The notes under the pieces are model-generated. The model saw nothing but the letters and a program-made list of their open reading frames with translations, searched no databases and had not been told where the DNA came from. Below are positions 1 to 11,470 of a DNA stretch of 64,000 nt, piece by piece. Every line of letters starts with the position of its first letter. The first letter of the stretch is position 1. The translations under genes and the position numbers were made by a program. The DNA is from a virus (Duplodnaviria > Caudoviricetes), in the IMG/VR virus record IMGVR_UViG_3300037400_004093, positions 2,591 through 66,590 of that record; one strand, given 5' to 3'.

Positions 1-533
1 TCAACCATGATCTTACCATTCTTTGAACGACCCTCAGCAACAGCCAACTTCACACCATCTTTTAAACCACTCCCCTCAACTACCCAATAGTTGATATGAT
101 GTCCCTGCTCAACAGAGATAGTAATATCTTCTTCATCCATCAGCCATAAATACTGATTAACGAATTTCTGAATAGCAGTAACATAATCGTTGTTCATCCA
201 CTTAAATGTGACAGCCTTTACAATATCTTCCTCCTCGTTTAATCCCTTAGCCGCTGACATAATGTTAATAACGCGTCTAGCAGCTTTATCTGGCAAAACT
301 AAAACTAAATTAGCCGCATAATCAGGATTAGCTTCCTTTTTGTTCGCAATCTGCTCTAATGTGTGAGCAGCACAAAGCAGAGCGCAAACTTCTCCATTGC
401 CATTCATACCCTGCTTTTCCCCAACATATCCGCACTTCTTTACCTTCTCTTCAGAAGAAGGATCGAAAATGTAACGAGCGGAAGCAGCAGTAGCAGCAGC
501 AACAACAACGATAGTAGAATTCTGATTAAACAT
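1..533 (-). CDS. hypothetical protein, runs off the window edge (weak RNase H-like pattern)
   Basis: Not in the ORF track. Hand translation from ATG at 533: MFNQNSTIVVVAAATAASARYIFDP...NGEVCALLCAAHTLEQ...LVLVLPDKAARRV...EQGHHINYW; open to base 1; GGAG upstream. Confidence 0.6.
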   Translation of the reverse strand, partial: MFNQNSTIVVVAAATAASARYIFDPSSEEKVKKCGYVGEKQGMNGNGEVCALLCAAHTLEQIANKKEANPDYAANLVLVLPDKAARRVINIMSAAKGLNEEEDIVKAVTFKWMNNDYVTAIQKFVNQYLWLMDEEDITISVEQGHHINYWVVEGSGLKDGVKLAVAEGRSKNGKIMV

Positions 534-709
534 AATAATCACCGTAACTCCATCCACGCTCGACCACGGGCAGGAGCCTTAAATAAAATATTAATAAATT
601 TTAATTAGTGCTTAAATTTCTAAATAAGCACAAGAAAACCCACAATTAACGTAAGAATAAAATAAACGCTAATTGTGGGCTCAATCTACTTATTTACTTA
701 AAGAAAGGA

Positions 710-2137
710 TTAAATAGAATCAACGATACCAGTCTTGATTCTCTTCTTTTTCTTTGGAACTTCCTCCTCAGAAATAGAATCAACGACTCCCGTCTTACAA
801 CGGACACGCTTCTTCTTGCTATTTACTTCCTCAGAATCAGTTGCAGGCTTATCGCCTACAACTTCCTCTCCAGAATTAGAAGCAGAACCGATACCAGTCT
901 TACGACGGATACGCTTACCAGTACCGTCAACAGCAGGAACAGCATCAACATCAGCAGCAGTCTTCTCAATCTTAACCTTATGCAGATCGAGCTTAAGAAT
1001 ATCTTCTTCGGATACTGTTACGCAGTCGTCCATGACGACATATGCGCACATACCCTTTCTCTCTCTGCCATTCTTATCAACGTATTCTACAGATCCAATA
1101 TTAGCAGAAGTTACTCTGCCTTTCTTAAATCTGTAAGCGTTTTCGATAAGATCACCTTTCTTATTCCCCTGTGGACGCTGGAATTCACCCACAATGGTGT
1201 CGCCTACAACGACCAAGTCGTACATAGACTTGCCATCTTTACGGAGATAAGGGATCAATGTTACCTCCTTATTAACCAACATATTAATCATCTGGTTAAT
1301 ACCGTTAGAATTACCTTTGCGTAATCCTTCGATATATACCTTAAAGATTAACTGCTTTTTATTTACAGGAGGTAACTGAATCTGTTCTGAAATTTCTTTT
1401 ATTGCCCAAGCCCTACCATTTTCATCAACCTCAATGGTAAAAATACCATCAAGATTTTCCTTTGCAACAGCATGTTTGGAATCATCTTCGGAATCAGCAT
1501 AGCCACAAATGAACTCTGCAGTATCGCCATTCTCAAAAGAACACTGGATTAGCTTATCTTTTGTGACTTTCACATCACTAAAATAAGCCAAATCGTAATG
1601 CAGTAATTCCAATCCTGCTACTACGTGAGTAGAGGAATTGATATCTGCGCCGGTAGTCTTTCCCTTAAAGGCAATGGATAAGAGCATTGCAGCTCTTTCT
1701 TCTGCCGTAAAAGCAGGAGTAATCAGACGGCAAAAGTTGGTAATTGCCTGATATCCCTTACCGGCCTCTGCCTTCGCTACTTTAATAGACTCAGAACGAA
1801 CGAATTCATTCTTTATCTTAGAGCAACGACTCTTGTCCTCCTTTTCAATATTGTTAACGGTTCTGTAAATATTGTCTACGAACCACTTAACTGCTTTGTA
1901 TTCATTAGGATACTTAGCAGCAATGGTAGCTACCAAAGGAAGTTCATTACCAATAGTAGTCTGTTCTTTGGTTATCACCTCCTTTAATGCCTTTCTAGCC
2001 TCCTCAATACCGTAAATACGGGAAGCCTGAAAAGCATCCTTTTCCATTAACTTCCCTTTACGGGTGGTAAAGGACTTTGTATCATAACGATACTCAAGAC
2101 CTTCCTTGCGGATATAACCATTTTCCAATATTGCCAT
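710..2137 (-). CDS. hypothetical protein with basic C-terminal R-x-K-T-G repeats; possible RNAP partner
   Basis: 475-aa ORF with AAAGGAG RBS, directly downstream of the polymerase gene. Confidence 0.7.
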   Translation of the reverse strand: MAILENGYIRKEGLEYRYDTKSFTTRKGKLMEKDAFQASRIYGIEEARKALKEVITKEQTTIGNELPLVATIAAKYPNEYKAVKWFVDNIYRTVNNIEKEDKSRCSKIKNEFVRSESIKVAKAEAGKGYQAITNFCRLITPAFTAEERAAMLLSIAFKGKTTGADINSSTHVVAGLELLHYDLAYFSDVKVTKDKLIQCSFENGDTAEFICGYADSEDDSKHAVAKENLDGIFTIEVDENGRAWAIKEISEQIQLPPVNKKQLIFKVYIEGLRKGNSNGINQMINMLVNKEVTLIPYLRKDGKSMYDLVVVGDTIVGEFQRPQGNKKGDLIENAYRFKKGRVTSANIGSVEYVDKNGRERKGMCAYVVMDDCVTVSEEDILKLDLHKVKIEKTAADVDAVPAVDGTGKRIRRKTGIGSASNSGEEVVGDKPATDSEEVNSKKKRVRCKTGVVDSISEEEVPKKKKRIKTGIVDSI

Positions 2138-2231
2138 AACTAAAATCTCCTTTCTTATGGCTTTAAAATTAATACATAAAGAGGAACCAAATATATCATT
2201 AAATAAATGGTTCCTCTTTATCCTCGCAGAC

Positions 2232-2298
2232 CAGTTATTATCGACATTTCAACGGCTTCTTTATCCATTTATATACACGGGAAAGGCGATACAACCTA
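2232..2298 (-). ncRNA. unidentified conserved intergenic motif, copy 1
   Basis: Shares 24-nt, 20-nt (1 mismatch) and 9-nt blocks with 5996-6058; begins about 24 nt after the polymerase stop codon. Confidence 0.5.
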
Positions 2299-2322
2299 GG
2301 GACACAAAGAACAAACTAAAGA

Positions 2323-5300
2323 TTAATATTCCTCGTCATAGTCATCCATCTTAAAGGATGGAGCTTTAACTACATCTTTATCCTTGAGATGATCCCAAGA
2401 AACGATCATGCCAAAACTCTTATCATCCAATCTTCTGGATAACAAGCCGGAAGACTTAGACAAGTCCTCGGCATAAACAATGGTTACCTTATCTCCAGTC
2501 TTAGCTGCATCGATAGTCAACTCCTGGAAGCGACGTTCACATGCAACTAAATCAGTTAATACGGCAATCATGTTTTCACGAGTTAAATTAATCTCGTATG
2601 CTGCAGTTATTACTGCATTTGCATCATCTTCGCTAACGCTGATAACGTCAACAAGATTGCACTCCACATCCTTATGAGTCTCCAAAGGAGAAACATAATT
2701 CTGTAAAGTGCGCTTCTTTCCCTTAAAAGCGTTGTTAAAGATGTGCTTCGCGAACTTTTCGTCTCCTGCTTTTAACTGAATTAAGGCCTCAACAAACTGT
2801 CCGTTAAGAACAGTTACCTTACCTACATCCAGATTAGCATTTTCGATAAAGTTCGCTAATGCAGTTAAACCGACATTGAAGTCAAACTTATTGTTAACCT
2901 TCTTAACTGGCTCCTGACCTTCATTATCAATGTAAACAGCGGTCAATCTCTTGATGCCTTCATCTACAATTTCTAATAAAGTATGGTCAGCGAAAGCTAC
3001 TGCACCATCGCCGTCGAAATCCATACCTGCTAACAGGTTCTTTAAGATCTCAATAGCTGGTACAACCAATAAGCCCTTACTAAAATGCTTTGCAGCATCC
3101 TTAACTAATCTCTTTTCAAGATCAGTTAAATCTTCGCAGTTATCTACCCTTTCTGCATACTCATGATAAGTCACAAGACGAATCTTGATCATTTCGAAGA
3201 TATGCATCTTAGGATATTTAACTGCAAAGAATTTTGAAACTCCTGCTTTTTCGGCCATAGAACATAAGCATTCTACAAAACCGTCATTATTGATTCCAAG
3301 AATTTTAGTTCCGAAATCTGCTGCTGGATCAGTAGTCAGCTTATTGTACCATCCCTTCATAGGAATGTTGACCTTCTTGAGCATGGACAGAATTCCCTTT
3401 AAAACTGTATTAATTGCAGTCTTAAACATAGGACGATAGATATCTGCCACAAAAGTAGGATCAATATTCTGAAGAACCTGACCTACATTTATATTAACAG
3501 CGCCATCATCCTCTGCCTCCACATCATCAGTCTCTTCAACTGATTCAGTTTCGCCGAACATCTCGTCAAAGATTTCAGCTACTGTTTTCTTAGAAGAGAA
3601 ATCTAATGCAGAAGGAATCCTGCCCTCAGGGATTACCCAATTGCCTTCTTCATCCTTAGAAATGACTCTAGCAACTTTCTTCTCAATATTCTTACGAATA
3701 AGAGATTCAAGATATTCCTGAGTCTTCTTTGGATTAAAGATTAAGGCAGTCTGCAACATCTGTGTGCTGGCTTTTGAACCATGAGCCACATCGTGACATT
3801 CATGAGTCATATCCAGCATATTAACACCGCTCTTAGTTTTCAGGTCATAAGTAGCCTTTAAACCATTAAGGTCAGTAAAATACTGCAGAAAACCATTTGG
3901 CAAACGGGTAATATCATACTCTCTGCCAGGGACACAACCAAAACCATGACTTAAAGCCCAATCAGCAGAAGGTACAACAATAACTAATTTCTTAGCATAA
4001 GCACCCTTCTTACCCTTGGACTTCACAGAAACGTTAAACTCATTCTGCTGTTCCTCCGTAATAGAATCACGGAATAATACAACGAACTTGCCACCACGAT
4101 TCTTTAACATAGTTTCGATGTATCCCTTCTTACGGGTAAGTGCCATTACCTTAGACAACCATGGACGACACTGAATGCCGACACCATTAACTGCCCATGG
4201 AGCAATTAAGTACTTACCACCTAACTTTTCAGTAAAAGCTTCAGCGATAAATTCGTCACTGAAAATGGCACGACCATCGAAGGATTCATCTTCTCTAGTC
4301 TTACCATTTAAGAGTGTCTTACCTAACTTCTCCTTACCCATGAAATAGCACACACATTCTAACTCTTTCAGATAGACAGAAGGAGCCTTATATGCACTAA
4401 GTCTGGTAATTAACTGAGCAACATCCTTATCGGTATGATCGTCAGTATCATCCAGATTCATAGTTACGGCACCGAAAGTACACTCATTCCATCTTTCATG
4501 TACCTTCTTAATACCAGCTTCGCCGCCACGATAGCCTGGGAAGCTACCGTCATGTTTCTTAGTCTGGGAAGCAGAGCTGGTTACACCTCCGCAGACTGGA
4601 TCATTATAGATCCAAACATGATTATGAACTTTGTTTTCTGCATTGAATACGATATTTCTATCTACTTTTTCAGCAGTAAATAAGTCCATCAACTTGCCAT
4701 CCAATCCTTCATAGAAAAATGGTGACAAAACTTCTTTATCCTCGGCAAGTCTTACATTTCCTTCGATATGGTATAACTTAGTATAACCATACTCAGGATT
4801 TTCTTCAGTACCTCCTTTCTTATAGCGCAGATGATTAAGAGCTTCTGCATCCTCAATCGTAATATCTACAATTTCAGATGTATATCTCTCAAACAATCTG
4901 GCAGTACCACCGATAGAAGTTGGAACATATGCTGGTGCAATGTCTAACTTATCGGTTTCTATGTTGGATACCTGCATCATTACAGATCTCTCAACCTTAT
5001 CTTTAGTAAAGAGAAGATGAGTGATATAGTAAGATGCAGGCTTAGACATAAGACTAGAGCGTAATCTTTCAACCTGGTCAATCTTCTGAATCAGTTTCAA
5101 GTTCTTCTCAGAAGCAAGTTCGATCCACTTATCTACAATACTAACCTTATTAATAGGGGTAGCAGCACCAATGGAAGTCTTAATATCTACCTGTGTACCA
5201 ACGAATTCAGGAATATTATATACTCTGGTTCCATTAGCTACAGCATAGATCATATGACCGTCAGCGATAACCGCAAAAGCTTCCGCCCCGATGTTGCTAT

Positions 5301-5517
5301 TAACAACATGCTGAGCCTTAACTACATCGATAGCCTTAATAGCCATCTTGTAGTTCGCTAATGCAGCAACAGCAGCTTTACGAGCAGAAGCCTGCTTCTT
5401 TGCGCGCTTAATTAAAACACGCTTCTTAGCAATTTTTGCCTCCGCTTCCTTAGCAGTCTTGATCGCATACTTTACGGATACGATATCGTTAACCTTACCC
5501 CATACTAACTTATTCAT
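2323..5517 (-). CDS. single-subunit two-barrel RNA polymerase, YonO/cellular RdRP-like
   Basis: Catalytic LAGMDFDGD plus QCRP, KYPKMH and TIDAAKTG in the order of the RdRP-family motifs (QIR, RxP, DxDGD, VDxxKTG); GGAGGAGG RBS. Confidence 0.85.
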   Translation of the reverse strand: MNKLVWGKVNDIVSVKYAIKTAKEAEAKIAKKRVLIKRAKKQASARKAAVAALANYKMAIKAIDVVKAQHVVNSNIGAEAFAVIADGHMIYAVANGTRVYNIPEFVGTQVDIKTSIGAATPINKVSIVDKWIELASEKNLKLIQKIDQVERLRSSLMSKPASYYITHLLFTKDKVERSVMMQVSNIETDKLDIAPAYVPTSIGGTARLFERYTSEIVDITIEDAEALNHLRYKKGGTEENPEYGYTKLYHIEGNVRLAEDKEVLSPFFYEGLDGKLMDLFTAEKVDRNIVFNAENKVHNHVWIYNDPVCGGVTSSASQTKKHDGSFPGYRGGEAGIKKVHERWNECTFGAVTMNLDDTDDHTDKDVAQLITRLSAYKAPSVYLKELECVCYFMGKEKLGKTLLNGKTREDESFDGRAIFSDEFIAEAFTEKLGGKYLIAPWAVNGVGIQCRPWLSKVMALTRKKGYIETMLKNRGGKFVVLFRDSITEEQQNEFNVSVKSKGKKGAYAKKLVIVVPSADWALSHGFGCVPGREYDITRLPNGFLQYFTDLNGLKATYDLKTKSGVNMLDMTHECHDVAHGSKASTQMLQTALIFNPKKTQEYLESLIRKNIEKKVARVISKDEEGNWVIPEGRIPSALDFSSKKTVAEIFDEMFGETESVEETDDVEAEDDGAVNINVGQVLQNIDPTFVADIYRPMFKTAINTVLKGILSMLKKVNIPMKGWYNKLTTDPAADFGTKILGINNDGFVECLCSMAEKAGVSKFFAVKYPKMHIFEMIKIRLVTYHEYAERVDNCEDLTDLEKRLVKDAAKHFSKGLLVVPAIEILKNLLAGMDFDGDGAVAFADHTLLEIVDEGIKRLTAVYIDNEGQEPVKKVNNKFDFNVGLTALANFIENANLDVGKVTVLNGQFVEALIQLKAGDEKFAKHIFNNAFKGKKRTLQNYVSPLETHKDVECNLVDVISVSEDDANAVITAAYEINLTRENMIAVLTDLVACERRFQELTIDAAKTGDKVTIVYAEDLSKSSGLLSRRLDDKSFGMIVSWDHLKDKDVVKAPSFKMDDYDEEY

Positions 5518-5573
5518 GATTAATTCCTCCTCCTATTTGACGCATAGGTGCGAAATTTTTAATGATTACACCA

Positions 5574-5602
5574 TTGATTTTCCTTAAATAATATGGTATA
5601 AT
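5574..5602 (+). promoter_or_regulatory. sigmaA-type promoter with extended -10, antisense to 5690-5869
   Basis: TTGATT-17 bp-(TG)TATAAT. Confidence 0.65.
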
Positions 5603-5689
5603 CTTCTTAGCTGGTATTTTATTATAGCCTAAGGAATATGGGCAGATGAATAGCAAGAATTCATCCACCCATACCTTTGAAAGCTAAAC

Positions 5690-5869
5690 TTACTCTTTCG
5701 AGCCAAACTCCACGATGAGAGAGAAGACCTTAGCTATCCTTGCTTCGATCTTAAGTGTTCGCTTTGTTTTCTGCGTTGCTTCTGAAGCCATCTTGACTAC
5801 GATACAGATTACTCCGCATATCGTTACGAGAAACAACAGGACATAAAACGCTACAATTGTCTGGTCCAT
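5690..5869 (-). CDS. 59-aa single-TM membrane peptide, type I toxin-like
   Basis: GGAGG RBS before MDQTIVAFYVLLFLVTICGVICIVVK followed by a basic tail; the track start at 5956 has no RBS. Confidence 0.65.
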   Translation of the reverse strand: MDQTIVAFYVLLFLVTICGVICIVVKMASEATQKTKRTLKIEARIAKVFSLIVEFGSKE

Positions 5870-5938
5870 AAAGGAATACCTCCAGAACTTCGATAGAAAA
5901 TAAACGGCACTAAATTTAAGGTCGATAGCTAGACCGTG

Positions 5939-5983
5939 AAGAGAGAGATTAAACATTGCGCGCTTACTCTCTCTCTTTTTTTT
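5939..5983 (+). terminator. intrinsic terminator closing the antisense transcript
   Basis: AAGAGAGAGA...TCTCTCTCTT stem followed by a T-run. Confidence 0.55.
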
Positions 5984-5995
5984 GCACCAAAAAAG

Positions 5996-6058
5996 CAGTT
6001 ATTAACGGTATTTCAACGGCTTCTTTATCCATTAACAGGGGAAAGGTGATACAACCTA
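5996..6058 (-). ncRNA. unidentified conserved intergenic motif, copy 2
   Basis: Near-copy of 2232-2298, about 19 nt after the stop codon of 6078-6851. Confidence 0.5.
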
Positions 6059-6077
6059 TAGCAGAACAGAAACAGAT

Positions 6078-6851
6078 TTAAATGGAATCTGTTTCGACCG
6101 CATTATTTAATAATGCATCGAGATCGTCCATTTCATCTGCATCTACAGCATGAGTCTTTTCAAACTCAGCTGCTTTTGCTTCCTCAACAGTGTCATAGAC
6201 ACCGGTGCTCATACGAGCACGTTTTGGAGCCTTCTTAGCTGTCTCCTTCTTAGGAGACTTTTTTGCTTCCTCCTTTTTTGGTTCAGGAGCTGGGGTGGAA
6301 GCTTCCCCCTCTAATTTCTGGAGAATCATATTCATACGATCCTCCAGAGTATTAATCTTAATACCCTGTTCTTTTACCTCCTTTCTTAATTCATTATTTT
6401 CATTTTCTAACTTAGAGCATTTGCTCTGCCATGTTGCAGCAGTCCTCTTCTGAGTTTCCACCTCCTTCTTCAAAGCTTCCTCTCTCTTCTGGGCTTCTAC
6501 CCGGAAAGTCCCGTAATTCTGTTTTACGATAGCCAGCTTCTTCTCCATTTCAGGATCTGGCTTAATCACCTCCTTAATGACTTCCTTTTCTACAGGAACT
6601 TCCTTAATCACCTCCTTTTCGATAACTGTGTTACGAGGAGTAATAGTACGGGTGTACTCCTCTAAACCAGCCTCCTTTCTTCTCTTATTTGCCTCTTCGT
6701 GCAGGGTAACTGCCTTATCCATTAAGCAGTCACCTGCGTTATAGCAGACATTTGCGCTCTTCTCGCAGACTACGGAGACCTGCTCCTTGAGAGCACCTCC
6801 GATAATTACACCTACGTTAAAAGCAGACTTAAAAGAATCAAAATTAAACAT
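6078..6851 (-). CDS. coiled-coil protein with Lys/Pro-rich tail
   Basis: 257 aa, AAAGGAAG RBS, heptad-rich centre, RMSTGV motif and C-terminal DSI. Confidence 0.7.
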   Translation of the reverse strand: MFNFDSFKSAFNVGVIIGGALKEQVSVVCEKSANVCYNAGDCLMDKAVTLHEEANKRRKEAGLEEYTRTITPRNTVIEKEVIKEVPVEKEVIKEVIKPDPEMEKKLAIVKQNYGTFRVEAQKREEALKKEVETQKRTAATWQSKCSKLENENNELRKEVKEQGIKINTLEDRMNMILQKLEGEASTPAPEPKKEEAKKSPKKETAKKAPKRARMSTGVYDTVEEAKAAEFEKTHAVDADEMDDLDALLNNAVETDSI

Positions 6852-6976
6852 AGTAATACTTCCTTTCTGAGCACGACGGCTCTTAAAAAATTTAAAATAA
6901 ACTTATAAACTGCTGTCGATGTATTATAATACCCATCTCAGGTGTTTAACGTGAGTTAACAGACCCCACGAATGCT

Positions 6977-7084
6977 CTGGACTTGTGACCAGCTTTATCT
7001 TATATTTTTCCTTCCTATATAATAAGGAAGAAAGATAAAGGTGCATTAATATCTTTTTTTAATCTTTAAAGATACCACTCTGCA
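6977..7084 (-). ncRNA. twister ribozyme A (P5-type permutation)
   Basis: Minus strand reads UGCAGAGUG-P1 hairpin-U^AAUGCAC-P3 hairpin-CUGGUCACAAGUCCAG; pseudoknot GUG/CAC; predicted cut between 7048 and 7047. Confidence 0.85.
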
Positions 7085-7086
7085 TA

Positions 7087-7116
7087 TTGACAAGCATATA
7101 AAGGATATGTTAAAAT
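7087..7116 (+). promoter_or_regulatory. sigmaA-type promoter, antisense to 7180-7335
   Basis: TTGACA-18 bp-(TG)TAAAAT. Confidence 0.6.
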
Positions 7117-7179
7117 AAAACAAGGAAAAGTGGGGCAACACCCGACAAGTGTTACCCCTGGATACCAACGCCGAGACGT

Positions 7180-7335
7180 TTAGAGAGCTAGTATTTGTCT
7201 CAAAATCTCAACTATAGCTGTGGCTGCAGCCGTTTTCAGGATTTCCCAGACACCAGAGGATATAAGAGATACCAGCTCCCATATCTTGTCTCCAATGCTT
7301 TCTTTTCTTGCATGCCTTCCGGCTTTCCTCGACAT
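7180..7335 (-). CDS. 51-aa amphipathic/hydrophobic peptide, type I toxin-like
   Basis: GAAAGGAA RBS before MSRKAGRHARKESIGDKIWELVSLISSGVWEILKTAAATAIVEILRQILAL; GGGGTAACAC/GTGTTGCCCC hairpin downstream. Confidence 0.6.
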   Translation of the reverse strand: MSRKAGRHARKESIGDKIWELVSLISSGVWEILKTAAATAIVEILRQILAL

Positions 7336-7410
7336 AGAGGTTATTCCTTTCTTGTGGGAAGAATAAGCAAAATGCCAGTGGTCCACAACCAACTGGCACG
7401 TCTCCGGCAT

Positions 7411-7444
7411 AAATAACCCTTATCTAACAAGGGTTATTTTTTTT
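7411..7444 (+). terminator. intrinsic terminator
   Basis: AAATAACCCTT/AAGGGTTATTT perfect stem plus T-run. Confidence 0.6.
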
Positions 7445-7461
7445 GTTTTTTAAAAATATCA

Positions 7462-7490
7462 TTGATTATGGTTTAAAACAATGATATAAT
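7462..7490 (+). promoter_or_regulatory. sigmaA-type promoter inside an inverted repeat, antisense to 7562-7783
   Basis: TTGATT-17 bp-(TG)TATAAT; ATATCATTG...CAATGATAT inverted repeat. Confidence 0.65.
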
Positions 7491-7561
7491 AAAATACAGA
7501 ATCAGAGAAACGGAGCCGGGAACTCCGCTCTCCTATCTGTGTACTGGGATCAACTCGGCAA

Positions 7562-7783
7562 CTACCACTGCTCAAGATCCGTATGTTGAACAGCAGCGAG
7601 CTTCTCATCTGTCAGCAAGTTATAGGCTTCTAACCCTAATACGTTACGGTCAATGGAGATCTGTCTATCCCGACAAAACACGTACATAGCTTCTTTCAGA
7701 CTTCTCGCCTCAAGTACATCTGAGTCGTATTGGCCATTGACATAACCGCCGACCCAGTATACTTCATATGTCTTCTTCTCCAA
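7562..7783 (-). CDS. small hypothetical protein, paralog of 9205-9387
   Basis: 73 aa, GGAAG RBS, KKxYEVxW and A-x-S-x-x-E/D-A patterns shared with 9205-9387. Confidence 0.65.
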   Translation of the reverse strand: MEKKTYEVYWVGGYVNGQYDSDVLEARSLKEAMYVFCRDRQISIDRNVLGLEAYNLLTDEKLAAVQHTDLEQW

Positions 7784-8062
7784 TGAGCCACTTCCATTCT
7801 TGACGAAATCCAGTGCGCATCACCTCCTTTCATGGTCGTAAAACGCGGAGAAGAGACGGTTAACAATAAGTGCTTAACTAAGAGCCCCAATGCTCCCATA
7901 GGTAAGTACTTATTGTTTTTTATTCCCCGTCATGCCGATAGGACAGCACATAATTAATATTCTGCTTAAAATAAATTAAATAAGCATTATTAAGGGCACT
8001 ACCAAGATATTTCTAATCCTGATAGTGCCCTTCCTTAATAATTATTTAACTTTTTATTCAGT

Positions 8063-8362
8063 TTAGAAGTTCAATACCTCCTTTAAAGTAGGTGCGGTAT
8101 CCTTCATGATCTTCACTTTTATTTTCTGGCCCACCTTTAATGAGCCAATTTCTACATTATTATTTTCCAAGGTAAAATCCTTGGATAAATAATAATCATA
8201 GTTTTCAATCCCTCCTTCCTCTGCCGCTCTTACAATGAGTGTTTCCAGGCATTCCCCCGGATGAACCACCATCTCGGTGGTTGCTACACACTCATAATGT
8301 GTATAGCAATTAAAGATTACAACAACTAATGCAACTACAACAATAATAATATTCTTAAACAT
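8063..8362 (-). CDS. membrane-anchored LysM-like protein (YneA-like architecture)
   Basis: N-terminal hydrophobic helix, then VVHPGECLETLI...NNNVEIGSLKVGQKIKV; AGGAGG RBS. Confidence 0.55.
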   Translation of the reverse strand: MFKNIIIVVVALVVVIFNCYTHYECVATTEMVVHPGECLETLIVRAAEEGGIENYDYYLSKDFTLENNNVEIGSLKVGQKIKVKIMKDTAPTLKEVLNF

Positions 8363-8393
8363 GATAATTTCCTCCTAAAAATTGTATTAAATA

Positions 8394-8423
8394 TTGACAA
8401 ATGGAGGAATCTCATGTTATAAT
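8394..8423 (+). promoter_or_regulatory. sigmaA-type promoter for a short RNA ending at a terminator at 8480-8511
   Basis: TTGACA-18 bp-(TG)TATAAT; AAGAGAGAGAA/TTCTCTCTCTT plus T-run about 60 nt downstream. Confidence 0.6.
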
Positions 8424-8644
8424 AAACCCACGTTTTGATGGATTTATGTTTAACATGACTAATTCCTCCATTAAACGATAAGAGAGAGAACCAGAACTTC
8501 TCTCTCTTTTTATTATTTAAATTTTTCCGAAAGCCTATATCGGAGTCAACGCCTCTCAAAAATAAATATCATATAGCGATTTTAATATGATATGAAGGTT
8601 TACAGTCTATACGCCTACAACTTTGTCAGCTATTTATTATGCAA

Positions 8645-8839
8645 TTATTTTTCAATAACTACATAGTAGCGACCGTCATCAAGACGGCCCTGTGCTACAA
8701 TTTTGCCACCACCACCAGCCTGACGCATTGCATCAAGCTTTGCAGCTCTGTATCCCATAGCTGCATTATGATTCTGAGCAGAACCATATCCTGTATACTG
8801 AGCAGCTAATGCCATAACTAAAACAACTACCTTTTTCAT
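8645..8839 (-). CDS. small secreted or exported protein
   Basis: GGGAGG RBS before MKKVVVLVMALAAQ (signal-like), Gly-rich; 64 aa. Confidence 0.6.
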   Translation of the reverse strand: MKKVVVLVMALAAQYTGYGSAQNHNAAMGYRAAKLDAMRQAGGGGKIVAQGRLDDGRYYVVIEK

Positions 8840-9000
8840 GATAATACCTCCCAGCATTTAACCTCATACTAGCATTTTCTAGTCTTATTGGACCGACCTC
8901 ATGATAAAGTCGATTAACAGTACGTCAGCTTTGATTAATGAGACTGCTTACCTGTCTCTTAACAACGGGTTACTGTTTAGGGCCCCGCAATGTACCTTTT

Positions 9001-9077
9001 CCGAGACTTTGGACTCGGCACTTCTATATTTTTTTAGAAGCGGTGCATTAATATCTTATTTAAGATACCCATCTGCA
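9001..9077 (-). ncRNA. twister ribozyme C (P5-type permutation)
   Basis: UGCAGAUGG-P1-U^AAUGCAC-P3-CCGAGUCCAAAGUCUCGG; P4 stem covaries relative to copies A and B; predicted cut 9050/9049. Confidence 0.8.
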
Positions 9078-9087
9078 AAAAATATCA

Positions 9088-9116
9088 TTGAACATAAGTC
9101 TAAAACATGATATAAT
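9088..9116 (+). promoter_or_regulatory. sigmaA-type promoter, antisense to 9205-9387
   Basis: TTGAAC-17 bp-(TG)TATAAT. Confidence 0.65.
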
Positions 9117-9204
9117 AAAAAATAACAGATGCGCCAAGTGTGCTGTTGACACCCGGCGCTTTTGTCTCGGGCTATCTGTCATAGCCCAGAGTAACAGTCT
9201 GCTA

Positions 9205-9387
9205 TCAGTTGTCGCTGATTTCAGTTGCAGACATATTACGTATCAAGTCGCCGCGAAACAGCTTTATGTTTGACTTTATCTTTCGATAAGCGTCGTTCAC
9301 ACTGTTAGCGGTGACTATTTTGTTGTAACTCTTGACGGAATCGTATTTGTCGACTACGATCCATCTGACTTCGTACTTTTTAGCCAT
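9205..9387 (-). CDS. small hypothetical protein, paralog of 7562-7783
   Basis: 60 aa, GGGAGG RBS, MAKKYEVRW. Confidence 0.65.
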   Translation of the reverse strand: MAKKYEVRWIVVDKYDSVKSYNKIVTANSVNDAYRKIKSNIKLFRGDLIRNMSATEISDN

Positions 9388-9501
9388 AGCTCTTGCCTCC
9401 CTAATCCATAATAGTTGATGGAGAGTTAGCGTATATGCCTAATAAAATACTTAGTTAACATTACAACTATTTCTTAACGTGTTTCAACGAATGCTTTTTA
9501 T

Positions 9502-9573
9502 CTGGACTTTGGACCAGCTACTTTTTTATTAAGTAGGTGCATTAATACTCCTATATAGAAGTACCCATCTGCA
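9502..9573 (-). ncRNA. twister ribozyme B (P5-type permutation)
   Basis: UGCAGAUGG-P1-U^AAUGCAC-P3-CUGGUCCAAAGUCCAG; pseudoknot UGG/CCA; predicted cut 9544/9543. Confidence 0.8.
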
Positions 9574-9682
9574 AAGTAGATGAATATATAAAATAGAGAA
9601 TGCAGATAAATAATCCACATTCTCTATACTAGCCATACATGTATCTTCGGCTACATGTAGGTATCGTATCTATATTTATTTC

Positions 9683-9711
9683 TTGAAACATACTATATCC
9701 TATGATATAAT
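9683..9711 (+). promoter_or_regulatory. sigmaA-type promoter for 9756-10073
   Basis: TTGAAA-17 bp-(TG)TATAAT. Confidence 0.65.
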
Positions 9712-9755
9712 TAAATTATCAACATAATATGAAAACAAGAAAGGATGATATAGAT

Positions 9756-10073
9756 ATGACGAAAACTAATTCTACCAGGATTTCTCCGCCGCCACCTCCT
9801 CCTAATCTTACTCAAGAACAGTTAGAAGAAGCAATTGGCAGAACTAGCTTTATTCCAGTCAAAGAAACTGAAGAGTCAGACGAAGAATATGCTCGTCGTC
9901 TCTCAGGCTGGAGAAATAAAAGAAAAACCGTAAATTACCGTTTAAAAGTTCTTTCAAGGAAAATAGAATACATCTTTTGGTCTTTAGCCTACAAAGCATT
10001 AGACAACTATGATGGATACTATAATCGCAAAGAACCACCTAAACATTCTGGCAATCCACGGTTTATCTTTTAA
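9756..10073 (+). CDS. hypothetical basic protein with a poly-Pro stretch
   Basis: GAAAGGA RBS before the ATG at 9756; has its own promoter; convergent with 10070-10567. Confidence 0.65.
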   Translation: MTKTNSTRISPPPPPPNLTQEQLEEAIGRTSFIPVKETEESDEEYARRLSGWRNKRKTVNYRLKVLSRKIEYIFWSLAYKALDNYDGYYNRKEPPKHSGNPRFIF

Positions 10074-10567
10074 GGTACCTGATATATCTCAGCTATCTTT
10101 TTCATAGTAGGTATAAGGGTGCCATCCTTATACATGCTATCAAGATCTTCTTCGCTGAGCTCATCAAAGTATCTTTCTAAACCTTCACCAGTTGCGGCAT
10201 ACAATCTAGCATCCATCTCTATAAGAGAATATTTATAGAGATCTTTGCCTTCATTGTACTCTTCTATGTGCTTGTCTACCCAAGCATATATAGAAGGGTA
10301 CTTTTTGTATTGCCACTCATGACGTAGCTCATGTCTAATTGTTATATCAAGATCATGAGCTTTGCCATGCTGACGAAGGTCTACTTCCACCAGACCAGGT
10401 GTATGTTCTCCTGTTGTTCCTAGTGGAAGTTTTTTAAATACAAGTTTAGGCGGAATAACACCTAATTTGATTGCTTCCACTAGGAACTGCGCTTTGAACA
10501 TAGCCTCTAGGACTATAAGAGCTTTTTTGCTTCTCTTATAGACCATGACTGCGTTAACAGTAGCCAT
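10070..10567 (-). CDS. zincin-like metallopeptidase (HExxH)
   Basis: ITIRHELRHEWQ and a downstream E-x-D-A-R; AAGGAGG RBS. Confidence 0.6.
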   Translation of the reverse strand: MATVNAVMVYKRSKKALIVLEAMFKAQFLVEAIKLGVIPPKLVFKKLPLGTTGEHTPGLVEVDLRQHGKAHDLDITIRHELRHEWQYKKYPSIYAWVDKHIEEYNEGKDLYKYSLIEMDARLYAATGEGLERYFDELSEEDLDSMYKDGTLIPTMKKIAEIYQVP

Positions 10568-10744
10568 ACTAATACACCTCCTTTCATACTTTTATTTGCT
10601 CTGTATTAGCATTACAATCTATATCTTGTTTTTATAAAGAATCTTAATTCTATATCAAGGCTTTTTATAAAGATAAGATACATTTCTAGTCTCTTTTTTT
10701 ACATGGTGAACCTCTCGAATTTCCATGTACACCATGGAGAAGCA

Positions 10745-10969
10745 TTAGAAATACCTCTCCATGGTGCAAAATAAAACTCCATTAGGGAGCGTATACTTCC
10801 TGTAATGGTCCTCCTTGAAGGAGGATACTAAAAGAGAGCCATTTCTGACTCTCTCATCTAATTTTAATAACATTTCCTTTTCTACGGTCTTGCCGTTGAT
10901 CTTCTCAACGGTGATCTTCTTAGTGGTAATGTTCTTATAGTTCATCATAGTAATCAACCTCCCAGTCAA
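10745..10969 (-). CDS. small hypothetical protein
   Basis: 74-aa ORF, GGGAGG near the start, hairpins downstream; exact start uncertain. Confidence 0.5.
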   Translation of the reverse strand: MTGRLITMMNYKNITTKKITVEKINGKTVEKEMLLKLDERVRNGSLLVSSFKEDHYRKYTLPNGVLFCTMERYF

Positions 10970-11059
10970 TTAAGCCTCACTGATTTCTTCAGTCTATTGG
11001 CTCGCATACAAATACTCCTCTGGTATATCCAGATAAAAAAGTATTCTATGAAATGTATG

Positions 11060-11470
11060 CTTCACAGGATTCCCCTAAAAAAGAAGAACACGTTTTACAT
11101 CAGGTGTGATCTGCTGATGTTTTCCTAAACTTTCGCTACGCTCCCATTTTCGATGGAACGTTTTTAACGGAAAAGTTTTCGGAAAATTTTCGTCAGTTAT
11201 CCCGTTCGATAATGAGATTTTGAGACAACTGACCCCGGGGGTAGCTTTTTCCCCAAAGACTTCCCCATAAGAGTACCTGGTCCCCTTCCAAAATTTTTTC
11301 ATTTTTCATTTCCCCTATAGGATTTTTCCCATTCTTATAAAAAAATTGATTTTGTCAACTATCATTTTCTTAAAAAAGTCTTAAATCCCTAATTTTTATA
11401 TAATTTTTTATGATTTTCGATTTCTATATAAAAACTTGATTTTATCAACCATAAAAAAATAAGTCTTTAG
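11060..11470. other. non-coding strand-switch region with a TTCCCC motif array
   Basis: Gene orientation flips here; repeated TTCCC(C), CCCCGGGGG palindrome, A/T tracts. Confidence 0.5.

Follow-up and report, generated by a model that had tools for sequence, protein, structure and literature searches.

Several kinds of short regulatory element are known from the spaces between phage genes. The intercistronic RNase III sites of phage T7 (R-sites) and of SP82 early mRNA (Bacillus subtilis) are themselves long hairpins. The put RNAs of phage HK022, present in two copies of ~65-70 nucleotides (nt) per genome, each consist of two stable stem-loops and act in cis ahead of terminators. The PeSL cassettes of T4-type phages are repeated intergenic promoter-stem-loop modules, which occur as direct repeats flanking genes and are linked to gene shuffling. 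Here we describe an intergenic motif of about 65 bases that occurs twice on the minus strand of a 64,000-nt stretch of DNA from a virus of the Caudoviricetes (IMG/VR record IMGVR_UViG_3300037400_004093, positions 2,591 to 66,590; hereafter the window). The two near-identical elements, A and B, are direct repeats around a gene for an RdRP/YonO-family RNA polymerase; they are conserved and well supported, and belong to one narrow lineage.

The window is a fragment of a pig-gut jumbo myophage; its genes include those for portal, major head, and sheath, and six group I introns lie within late genes. CheckV puts the completeness of the contig at 28%, and only that share of the genome is in hand. 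The motif sits in the minus-strand early arm (1-11300), where the features that concern it are the following:

6059-6077, minus strand: U-rich spacer separating copy B from the stop codon
5996-6058, minus strand: motif copy B, starting 19 nt past the TAA of a 257-amino-acid (aa) open reading frame (ORF), ~480 nt upstream of the polymerase gene start
6023-6045, minus strand: small hairpin within copy B, the same as in A, with an 8-10-nt loop
5939-5977, minus strand: strong hairpin 3′ of copy B; a run of eight T follows on the plus strand, and the arms co-vary among strains
2323-5517, minus strand: gene for the RdRP/YonO-family two-barrel RNA polymerase (1064 aa), with a DFDGD metal motif, bracketed by copies B and A
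2299-2322, minus strand: U-rich spacer separating copy A from the stop codon; 2 of 27 alignment columns variable
2232-2298, minus strand: motif copy A, starting 24 nt past the TAA of the polymerase gene
2259-2285, minus strand: small hairpin within copy A, 4 + 2 pairs, with a variable 12-nt loop
2176-2221, minus strand: strong hairpin 3′ of copy A, 14 perfect pairs, followed by an AU-rich tract, a ribosome-binding site, and a 475-aa gene

A preliminary description, made from the sequence without database searches, had reported two minus-strand copies, each about 20 nt past a stop codon and a U-rich spacer, with variation gathered in a hairpin loop. Both pairs of coordinates were borne out, as was the placement (24 nt for A and 19 nt for B, both spacers being U-rich), and a 4-nt indel and one substitution between the copies do fall in the loop. 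Aligned to each other, A and B share blocks of 19, 24, and 8 nt and differ by five substitutions and that one indel; their flanking sequences show no relationship. Two blocks of 21 and 20 nt each occur exactly twice in the window when up to three mismatches are tolerated, against chance expectations of 0.00 and 0.01, respectively, in shuffled sequence, and the whole 66.6-kb viral contig contains two motif copies only. When the contig and the longer contigs of its relatives were searched with a profile, only A and B were significant (E ~1e-21), and no match lay before the late genes. The order is constant at A and B: stop codon, spacer, motif, a strong hairpin 10-20 nt further on, then ribosome-binding site and start codon.

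This layout can be compared with the systems above. Like RNase III sites, the motif is found in several similar copies between early genes, together with stable hairpins and a putative separation of cistrons of different stability; the conserved part, however, is a weakly structured 65-nt segment ahead of the hairpin. Two lineage-restricted copies ahead of hairpins recall put, but the motif does not have the two stems, and most of the downstream hairpins are not gene-strand terminators. PeSL cassettes carry a recognizable host-type promoter, whereas the motif has none on the gene strand. It resembles known small self-cleaving ribozymes in size, in its intergenic coding-strand position within a phage operon, and in having a hairpin surrounded by unpaired bases that are conserved; it differs in matching no covariance model, in its weak helices, in showing covariation in one pair at most, and in its very narrow distribution.

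The 1064-aa polymerase forms a single 90% cluster among 5.8 billion proteins. Its 14 members are all on pig-gut contigs, and A and B are present in all of them. Over nine related strains supplied by this cluster, from which all variable-column fractions were computed, motif A varies in 2 of 67 columns (0.03) and the whole A spacer in 6 of 188 (0.03). Motif B varies in nine of 64 (0.14), all changes falling in the loop, the 5-nt spacer, or the pair that closes the loop, and the variable fraction of its immediate flanks is 0.27-0.30. The corresponding fractions for the third, first, and second codon positions of the adjacent gene are 0.24, 0.08, and 0.05, and four-fold sites differ by 8-15% between strains. 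The positions separating A from B are identical in every strain. Since these differences are fixed throughout, the copies are paralogs of long standing, and it is selection, not recent copying, that keeps their blocks identical. The motif blocks, to judge from this comparison of strains, are under purifying selection.

The substitutions also bear on the strand and the molecule involved. Five fall in proposed stems, and all are pairing-compatible solely with minus-strand RNA. The loop-closing pair of the small hairpin appears as C-G, U.G, or U-A across strains, and at column 14 a C-G pair has become U.G; in strain L051 the hairpin of a third, related element (see below) carries two C-to-U changes, giving G.U pairs. 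Substitutions of this kind suggest that the motif probably acts as RNA on the gene strand. Coding explanations were rejected: a mini-ORF from the motif's ATG is excluded because this start codon is ATA in copy B of strains L044, L181, and L182, and plus-strand ORFs across the motif are excluded because the 4-nt indel shifts their frame.

We compared the motif with known families and signals. The preliminary description could not fit it to known ribozyme cores, and the Rfam covariance models agree: hammerhead, pistol, hatchet, twister-sister, and HDV-like models do not match (E up to 5-10), and on stretches of 191 nt (A) and 161 nt (B) no family falls on the motif at E up to 10. A degenerate twister was considered and rejected, as no twister hit appeared on the motif at the same limit. 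Weak Rfam matches (ncr1015, microRNA models, and psbA 3′ untranslated region models) rest on the terminator-like hairpins, far below threshold, and were set aside; the strong hairpin past A resembles generic hairpin models only. As for mimicry of a CRISPR repeat, Rfam CRISPR-DR35 scores 13 bits (E 5), and in 401 sampled Clostridia genomes there were no arrays with repeats ending in the box described below, matches being at control level.

The 3′ half of the motif has a relative elsewhere in the operon. It contains a box, GUUGAAAY, that also follows a twister ribozyme of the same early arm, and the comparison extends to two sister phages, G001 and G002, with portal and polymerase identities of 69% and 30%. 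The elements concerned are as follows:

9502-9573, minus strand: Twister-P5 (T1), Rfam 41.5 bits, above the family threshold
9467-9489, minus strand: GUUGAAAY box directly past T1, kept past the orthologous G001 twister at 18 of 23 positions
~8984-9080, minus strand: middle twister copy, conserved blocks recognized by eye; missed by the Rfam Twister-P5 model, with only a 15-bit twister-P1 match, below threshold
6977-7084, minus strand: Twister-P5, Rfam 33.2 bits, below threshold
5996-6018, minus strand: GUUGAAAY box, 3′ half of copy B, resembling the T1 flank
2232-2254, minus strand: GUUGAAAY box, 3′ half of copy A, with ~17 of 23 positions in common with the T1 flank

Three twisters had been counted nearby in the preliminary description; Rfam finds two of them, one above threshold, while the third, with its blocks at about 9008-9080, is recognized by eye only and reaches no covariance-model threshold. 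G001 has a twister-P1 at the site orthologous to T1 (L157:7954-8008). The small genes that come next in the two phages are homologous (38% identity, E 3e-13), and in G001 the box past the twister leads into an A-rich tract and a hairpin. The orthologous twisters, P5 at 9502-9573 and P1 at L157:7954-8008, are circularly permuted to each other. Motif and T1 flank are alike in that the box is in most cases followed by an A-rich tract and a hairpin; they differ in that no twister core precedes the box in the motif. The preliminary description put the twisters in the same intergenic role, but the layouts differ: each twister comes after the terminator of the gene ahead of it, whereas the motif stands immediately downstream of a stop codon, with a hairpin following.

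Outside the window, 260-360 nt to the left of its start (contig G000:C1:2230-2330, locus L158), there is a third element, placed after the stop codon of the gene next to the 475-aa gene on its downstream side. Here a plain hairpin stands ahead of the box's 11-mer core; an A-rich tract comes next, and then a second hairpin, which is a terminator on the plus strand. The profile of A and B reaches it marginally (nhmmer E ~2), so we treat it as a probable distant relative of the motif only. Its 5′ leader resembles the leader past copy B, and past it is a gene for a 64-aa one-helix membrane peptide.

Exact and gapped pattern scans of IMG/VR, JGI metagenomes, and GTDB genomes turned up no motif copy, all matches being fortuitous and within coding sequence. 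GenBank phages gave no megablast match to the first 12 kb, and a related-locus search with the 1064-aa protein found none. The homologs that metagenomes supplied are those of this one lineage, no copy being found beyond it. A single IMG/VR match to the box pattern proved to be an unrelated terminator by a tRNA gene, and the pattern used could not match the known copies. G001 and G002 are without the motif and show only coding chance matches to the 11-mer core. The equivalent G001 junctions consist of stop codon, short spacer, hairpin, and ribosome-binding site; at the place of the A junction the ORF runs through without a break, the split in the polymerase lying elsewhere. Given this absence outside the lineage and the plain sister junctions, the motif looks like an addition in one species-level lineage. 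The sister phage has a recurrent intergenic box of its own (AGCTATTAGAG and relatives), past stop codons and inside hairpins, at these G001 sites:

L157 9555-9575: box site
L157 13445-13470: box site
L157 15560-15575: box site
L157 17370-17390: box site
L157 18470-18485: box site

Our preferred reading, which we hold tentatively, is that the motif is a lineage-specific cis-acting RNA signal in the untranslated spacer just past an early-operon gene. It would be transcribed within the minus-strand polycistronic mRNA, and it has three parts: a conserved 5′ block, the small hairpin with its free loop, and the GUUGAAAY box also found behind a twister. The signal may be read mainly by its sequence, by a protein such as a host or phage RNase or an RNA-binding protein. 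With the strong hairpin next door, it would mark a site of intercistronic mRNA processing or of differential stability, and would thereby determine how strongly the polymerase gene is expressed relative to its neighbors. The repeat, the selection on it, its position with the constant layout, and the strand bias of its substitutions are shown and speak for this reading, as does the retention of the 3′ box at the orthologous place in a phage with proteins of only 30%-38% identity. That this is an intercistronic processing or stability signal acting with the adjacent hairpin is possible, though we would not call it probable.

Taken as a structured RNA, the motif has no advantage in folding energy over shuffled sequence (z = -0.16 and +0.30 for the two copies); the whole copy A spacer, including the strong hairpin, gives z = -4.4. 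The RNAalifold consensus is only -4.6 kcal/mol and is unlike our hand model. In that three-helix model 12 of 16 pairs are invariant and one pair has changed on both sides, so the covariation that was looked for amounts to a single covarying pair, and this is all the structural support there is; 96.9% of cells pair, a value equaled by 252 of 500 shuffles, and two inner pairs of the closing helix are broken in natural variants. That single pair counts against the processing reading, as do several other points. The plain hairpins at the sister phage's same junctions make the motif dispensable for the basic operon design, and the third element shares just the 11-mer and the layout with A and B. 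A transcript end and cleavage at the motif are putative only. Finally, the motif could serve the phage polymerase as a signal in DNA. The combination of near-invariant sequence and weak folding points to recognition by a partner, which fits better than an autonomous fold.

The possibility just named, a promoter, pause, or terminator for the phage's own RdRP/YonO-family polymerase, ranks highest among the alternatives, although we consider it unlikely. The copies bracket the gene of the polymerase itself, their long invariant blocks of low structure are typical of phage polymerase promoters, and phages commonly have a hairpin at the transcript start with a ribosome-binding site after it. Among other polymerases, the promoter of YonO is still undefined (PMC5467207), conserved DNA motifs are used by two from P23-45 that belong to the same superfamily (bioRxiv 10.1101/2022.12.01.518664), and the crAss-like virion polymerase has early starts without a common motif (bioRxiv 10.1101/2020.03.07.982082). 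However, there are two copies and one weak one in ~80 kb of the lineage, with none before the late structural operons; the 4-nt indel changes the spacing between the blocks; and the substitutions favor wobble pairs, which are relevant in RNA alone. The phage-polymerase promoter suggested in the preliminary description also found no backing in sigma-A-type sites: no minus-strand -35/-10 pair of sigma-A/sigma-70 type with 16-18-bp spacing was detected in or beside either copy, and the strong sigma-A sites of the region are all on the plus strand. The assignment of the gene itself agrees with the closest atlas clusters of the 1064-aa protein, which are RdRP (PF05183) proteins of phages and Bacillota (score 0.95); a PDB sequence search with the polymerase returned nothing meaningful, and the flanking proteins matched nothing in Pfam or PHROGs.

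The preliminary description had also offered the motif as a candidate new self-cleaving or processing RNA. Part of this stands: the sequence is selected, belongs to no known family, has RNA-compatible substitutions on the gene strand, and is homologous in its 3′ half to a twister flank. Catalysis itself is unsupported. In its strong form the proposal is that a new ribozyme class cuts the polycistronic early mRNA, taking the place of the twisters at other junctions. Three twisters in the same operon, the homology of the 3′ half to the box past T1, the free-looped hairpin set among many invariant and apparently unpaired bases, and the failure of any known family to match all speak for it. Yet the folding is at shuffle level, the consensus being as weak as given above; the helices are short and A-U rich; covariation is seen in one pair, and two inner pairs of the closing helix break; and the motif keeps to a single lineage, unlike the widespread known classes of ribozyme. 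The related third element, moreover, has just a plain hairpin before its box. On balance the ribozyme idea gains one point, from the likeness to the twister flank, and loses on folding, covariation, distribution, and the third element, and we regard it as improbable. We are similarly doubtful of a broader version, by which a new catalytic or ribozyme-equivalent module would be coupled to an ancient GUUGAAAY box, one that jumbo phages of this group place behind twisters as well. Different cleavage modules, set at intervals along the early operon around the RdRP-family polymerase, would then have this box in common as their downstream partner.

A further alternative is that the repeats are a duplicated or mobile intergenic cassette without a function of its own, a remnant of recombination that rearranged the polymerase genes, in the manner of the PeSL cassettes of T4-type phages. 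The gene downstream of copy A is relevant here:

710-2137, minus strand: 475-aa gene past copy A; in G001 it and the C-terminal part of the polymerase form a single ORF

The split of the RdRP/YonO-family polymerase differs by lineage. Here (710-5517) it is encoded as 1064-aa and 475-aa genes, and in G001 (G001:C1:77600-81470) as a 796-815-aa ORF and a 707-aa ORF that joins the C-terminal part of the first with the second. Such a difference in gene boundaries (X+Y and Z here, X and Y+Z in G001) is what a cassette would lead one to expect, as are direct repeats flanking one gene and the plain hairpins in the sister phage. An RNA contig of a relative (X1, record 2; compare window 5897-5983 and 8673-8862) points the same way: it joins the relative's homolog of the 70-aa gene, through 26 other bases, to the B hairpin with the motif absent, a junction from which we infer that intergenic modules are shuffled between genes. 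A cassette without function, however, has to contend with conservation that beats second codon positions over 8%-15% four-fold-site divergence, with differences between A and B that are old and fixed while the blocks are still identical, and with the absence of target-site duplications. We regard it, too, as improbable.

Least probable of all, and in our view very unlikely, is a put-like cis-acting antiterminator RNA that lets the polymerase pass the downstream hairpin: the size of ~65 nt, two copies per genome, a single lineage, a position 10-20 nt ahead of a strong hairpin each time, and an operon with several gene-strand terminators would suit it, but no put-like two-stem fold is predicted, the U-tracts of the hairpins past B and the third element are on the opposite strand, so that sense transcription hardly needs rescue, and only A's hairpin has a partly U-rich tail. 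The hairpins past A and B are likewise absent from a minus-strand intrinsic-terminator scan, in keeping with a tail that is only partly U-rich at A. Because its eight T are on the plus strand, the B hairpin is better taken as the terminator of an antisense RNA.

Antisense transcription is a feature of the surrounding region. The plus strand carries extended -10 sigma-A promoters, close to consensus and antisense to small ORFs of the minus strand, at these positions:

5574-5602, plus strand: extended -10 sigma-A promoter
7087-7116, plus strand: extended -10 sigma-A promoter
7462-7490, plus strand: extended -10 sigma-A promoter
8394-8423, plus strand: extended -10 sigma-A promoter
9088-9116, plus strand: extended -10 sigma-A promoter
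9683-9711, plus strand: extended -10 sigma-A promoter

Abundant pig-gut metatranscriptome contigs, of high depth, at 5633-5910 and 7507-7859 start near two of these promoters and stop before plus-strand terminators. They fit plus-strand antisense RNAs, bearing in mind that contigs cannot prove ends or strand. No pig-gut metatranscriptome contig covers either motif, which is uninformative on motif transcription, as contigs cannot show ends. An 88-aa ORF past copy B (5690-5956, minus strand) is not conserved, being reduced to eight codons in relatives, with 5690-5844 missing in one; since it is so poorly kept, this region is more likely an RNA or a shorter peptide than an 88-aa protein.

If the motif is functional as RNA, it would be a new and sharply defined regulatory element in an early operon that also contains twisters, antisense RNAs, and a split YonO-like polymerase, and it would open a way to the role that twisters, with their conserved flanks, play in phages. 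If instead it is a signal for the phage polymerase, the two copies would be among the first candidate recognition sequences for the RdRP/YonO family.

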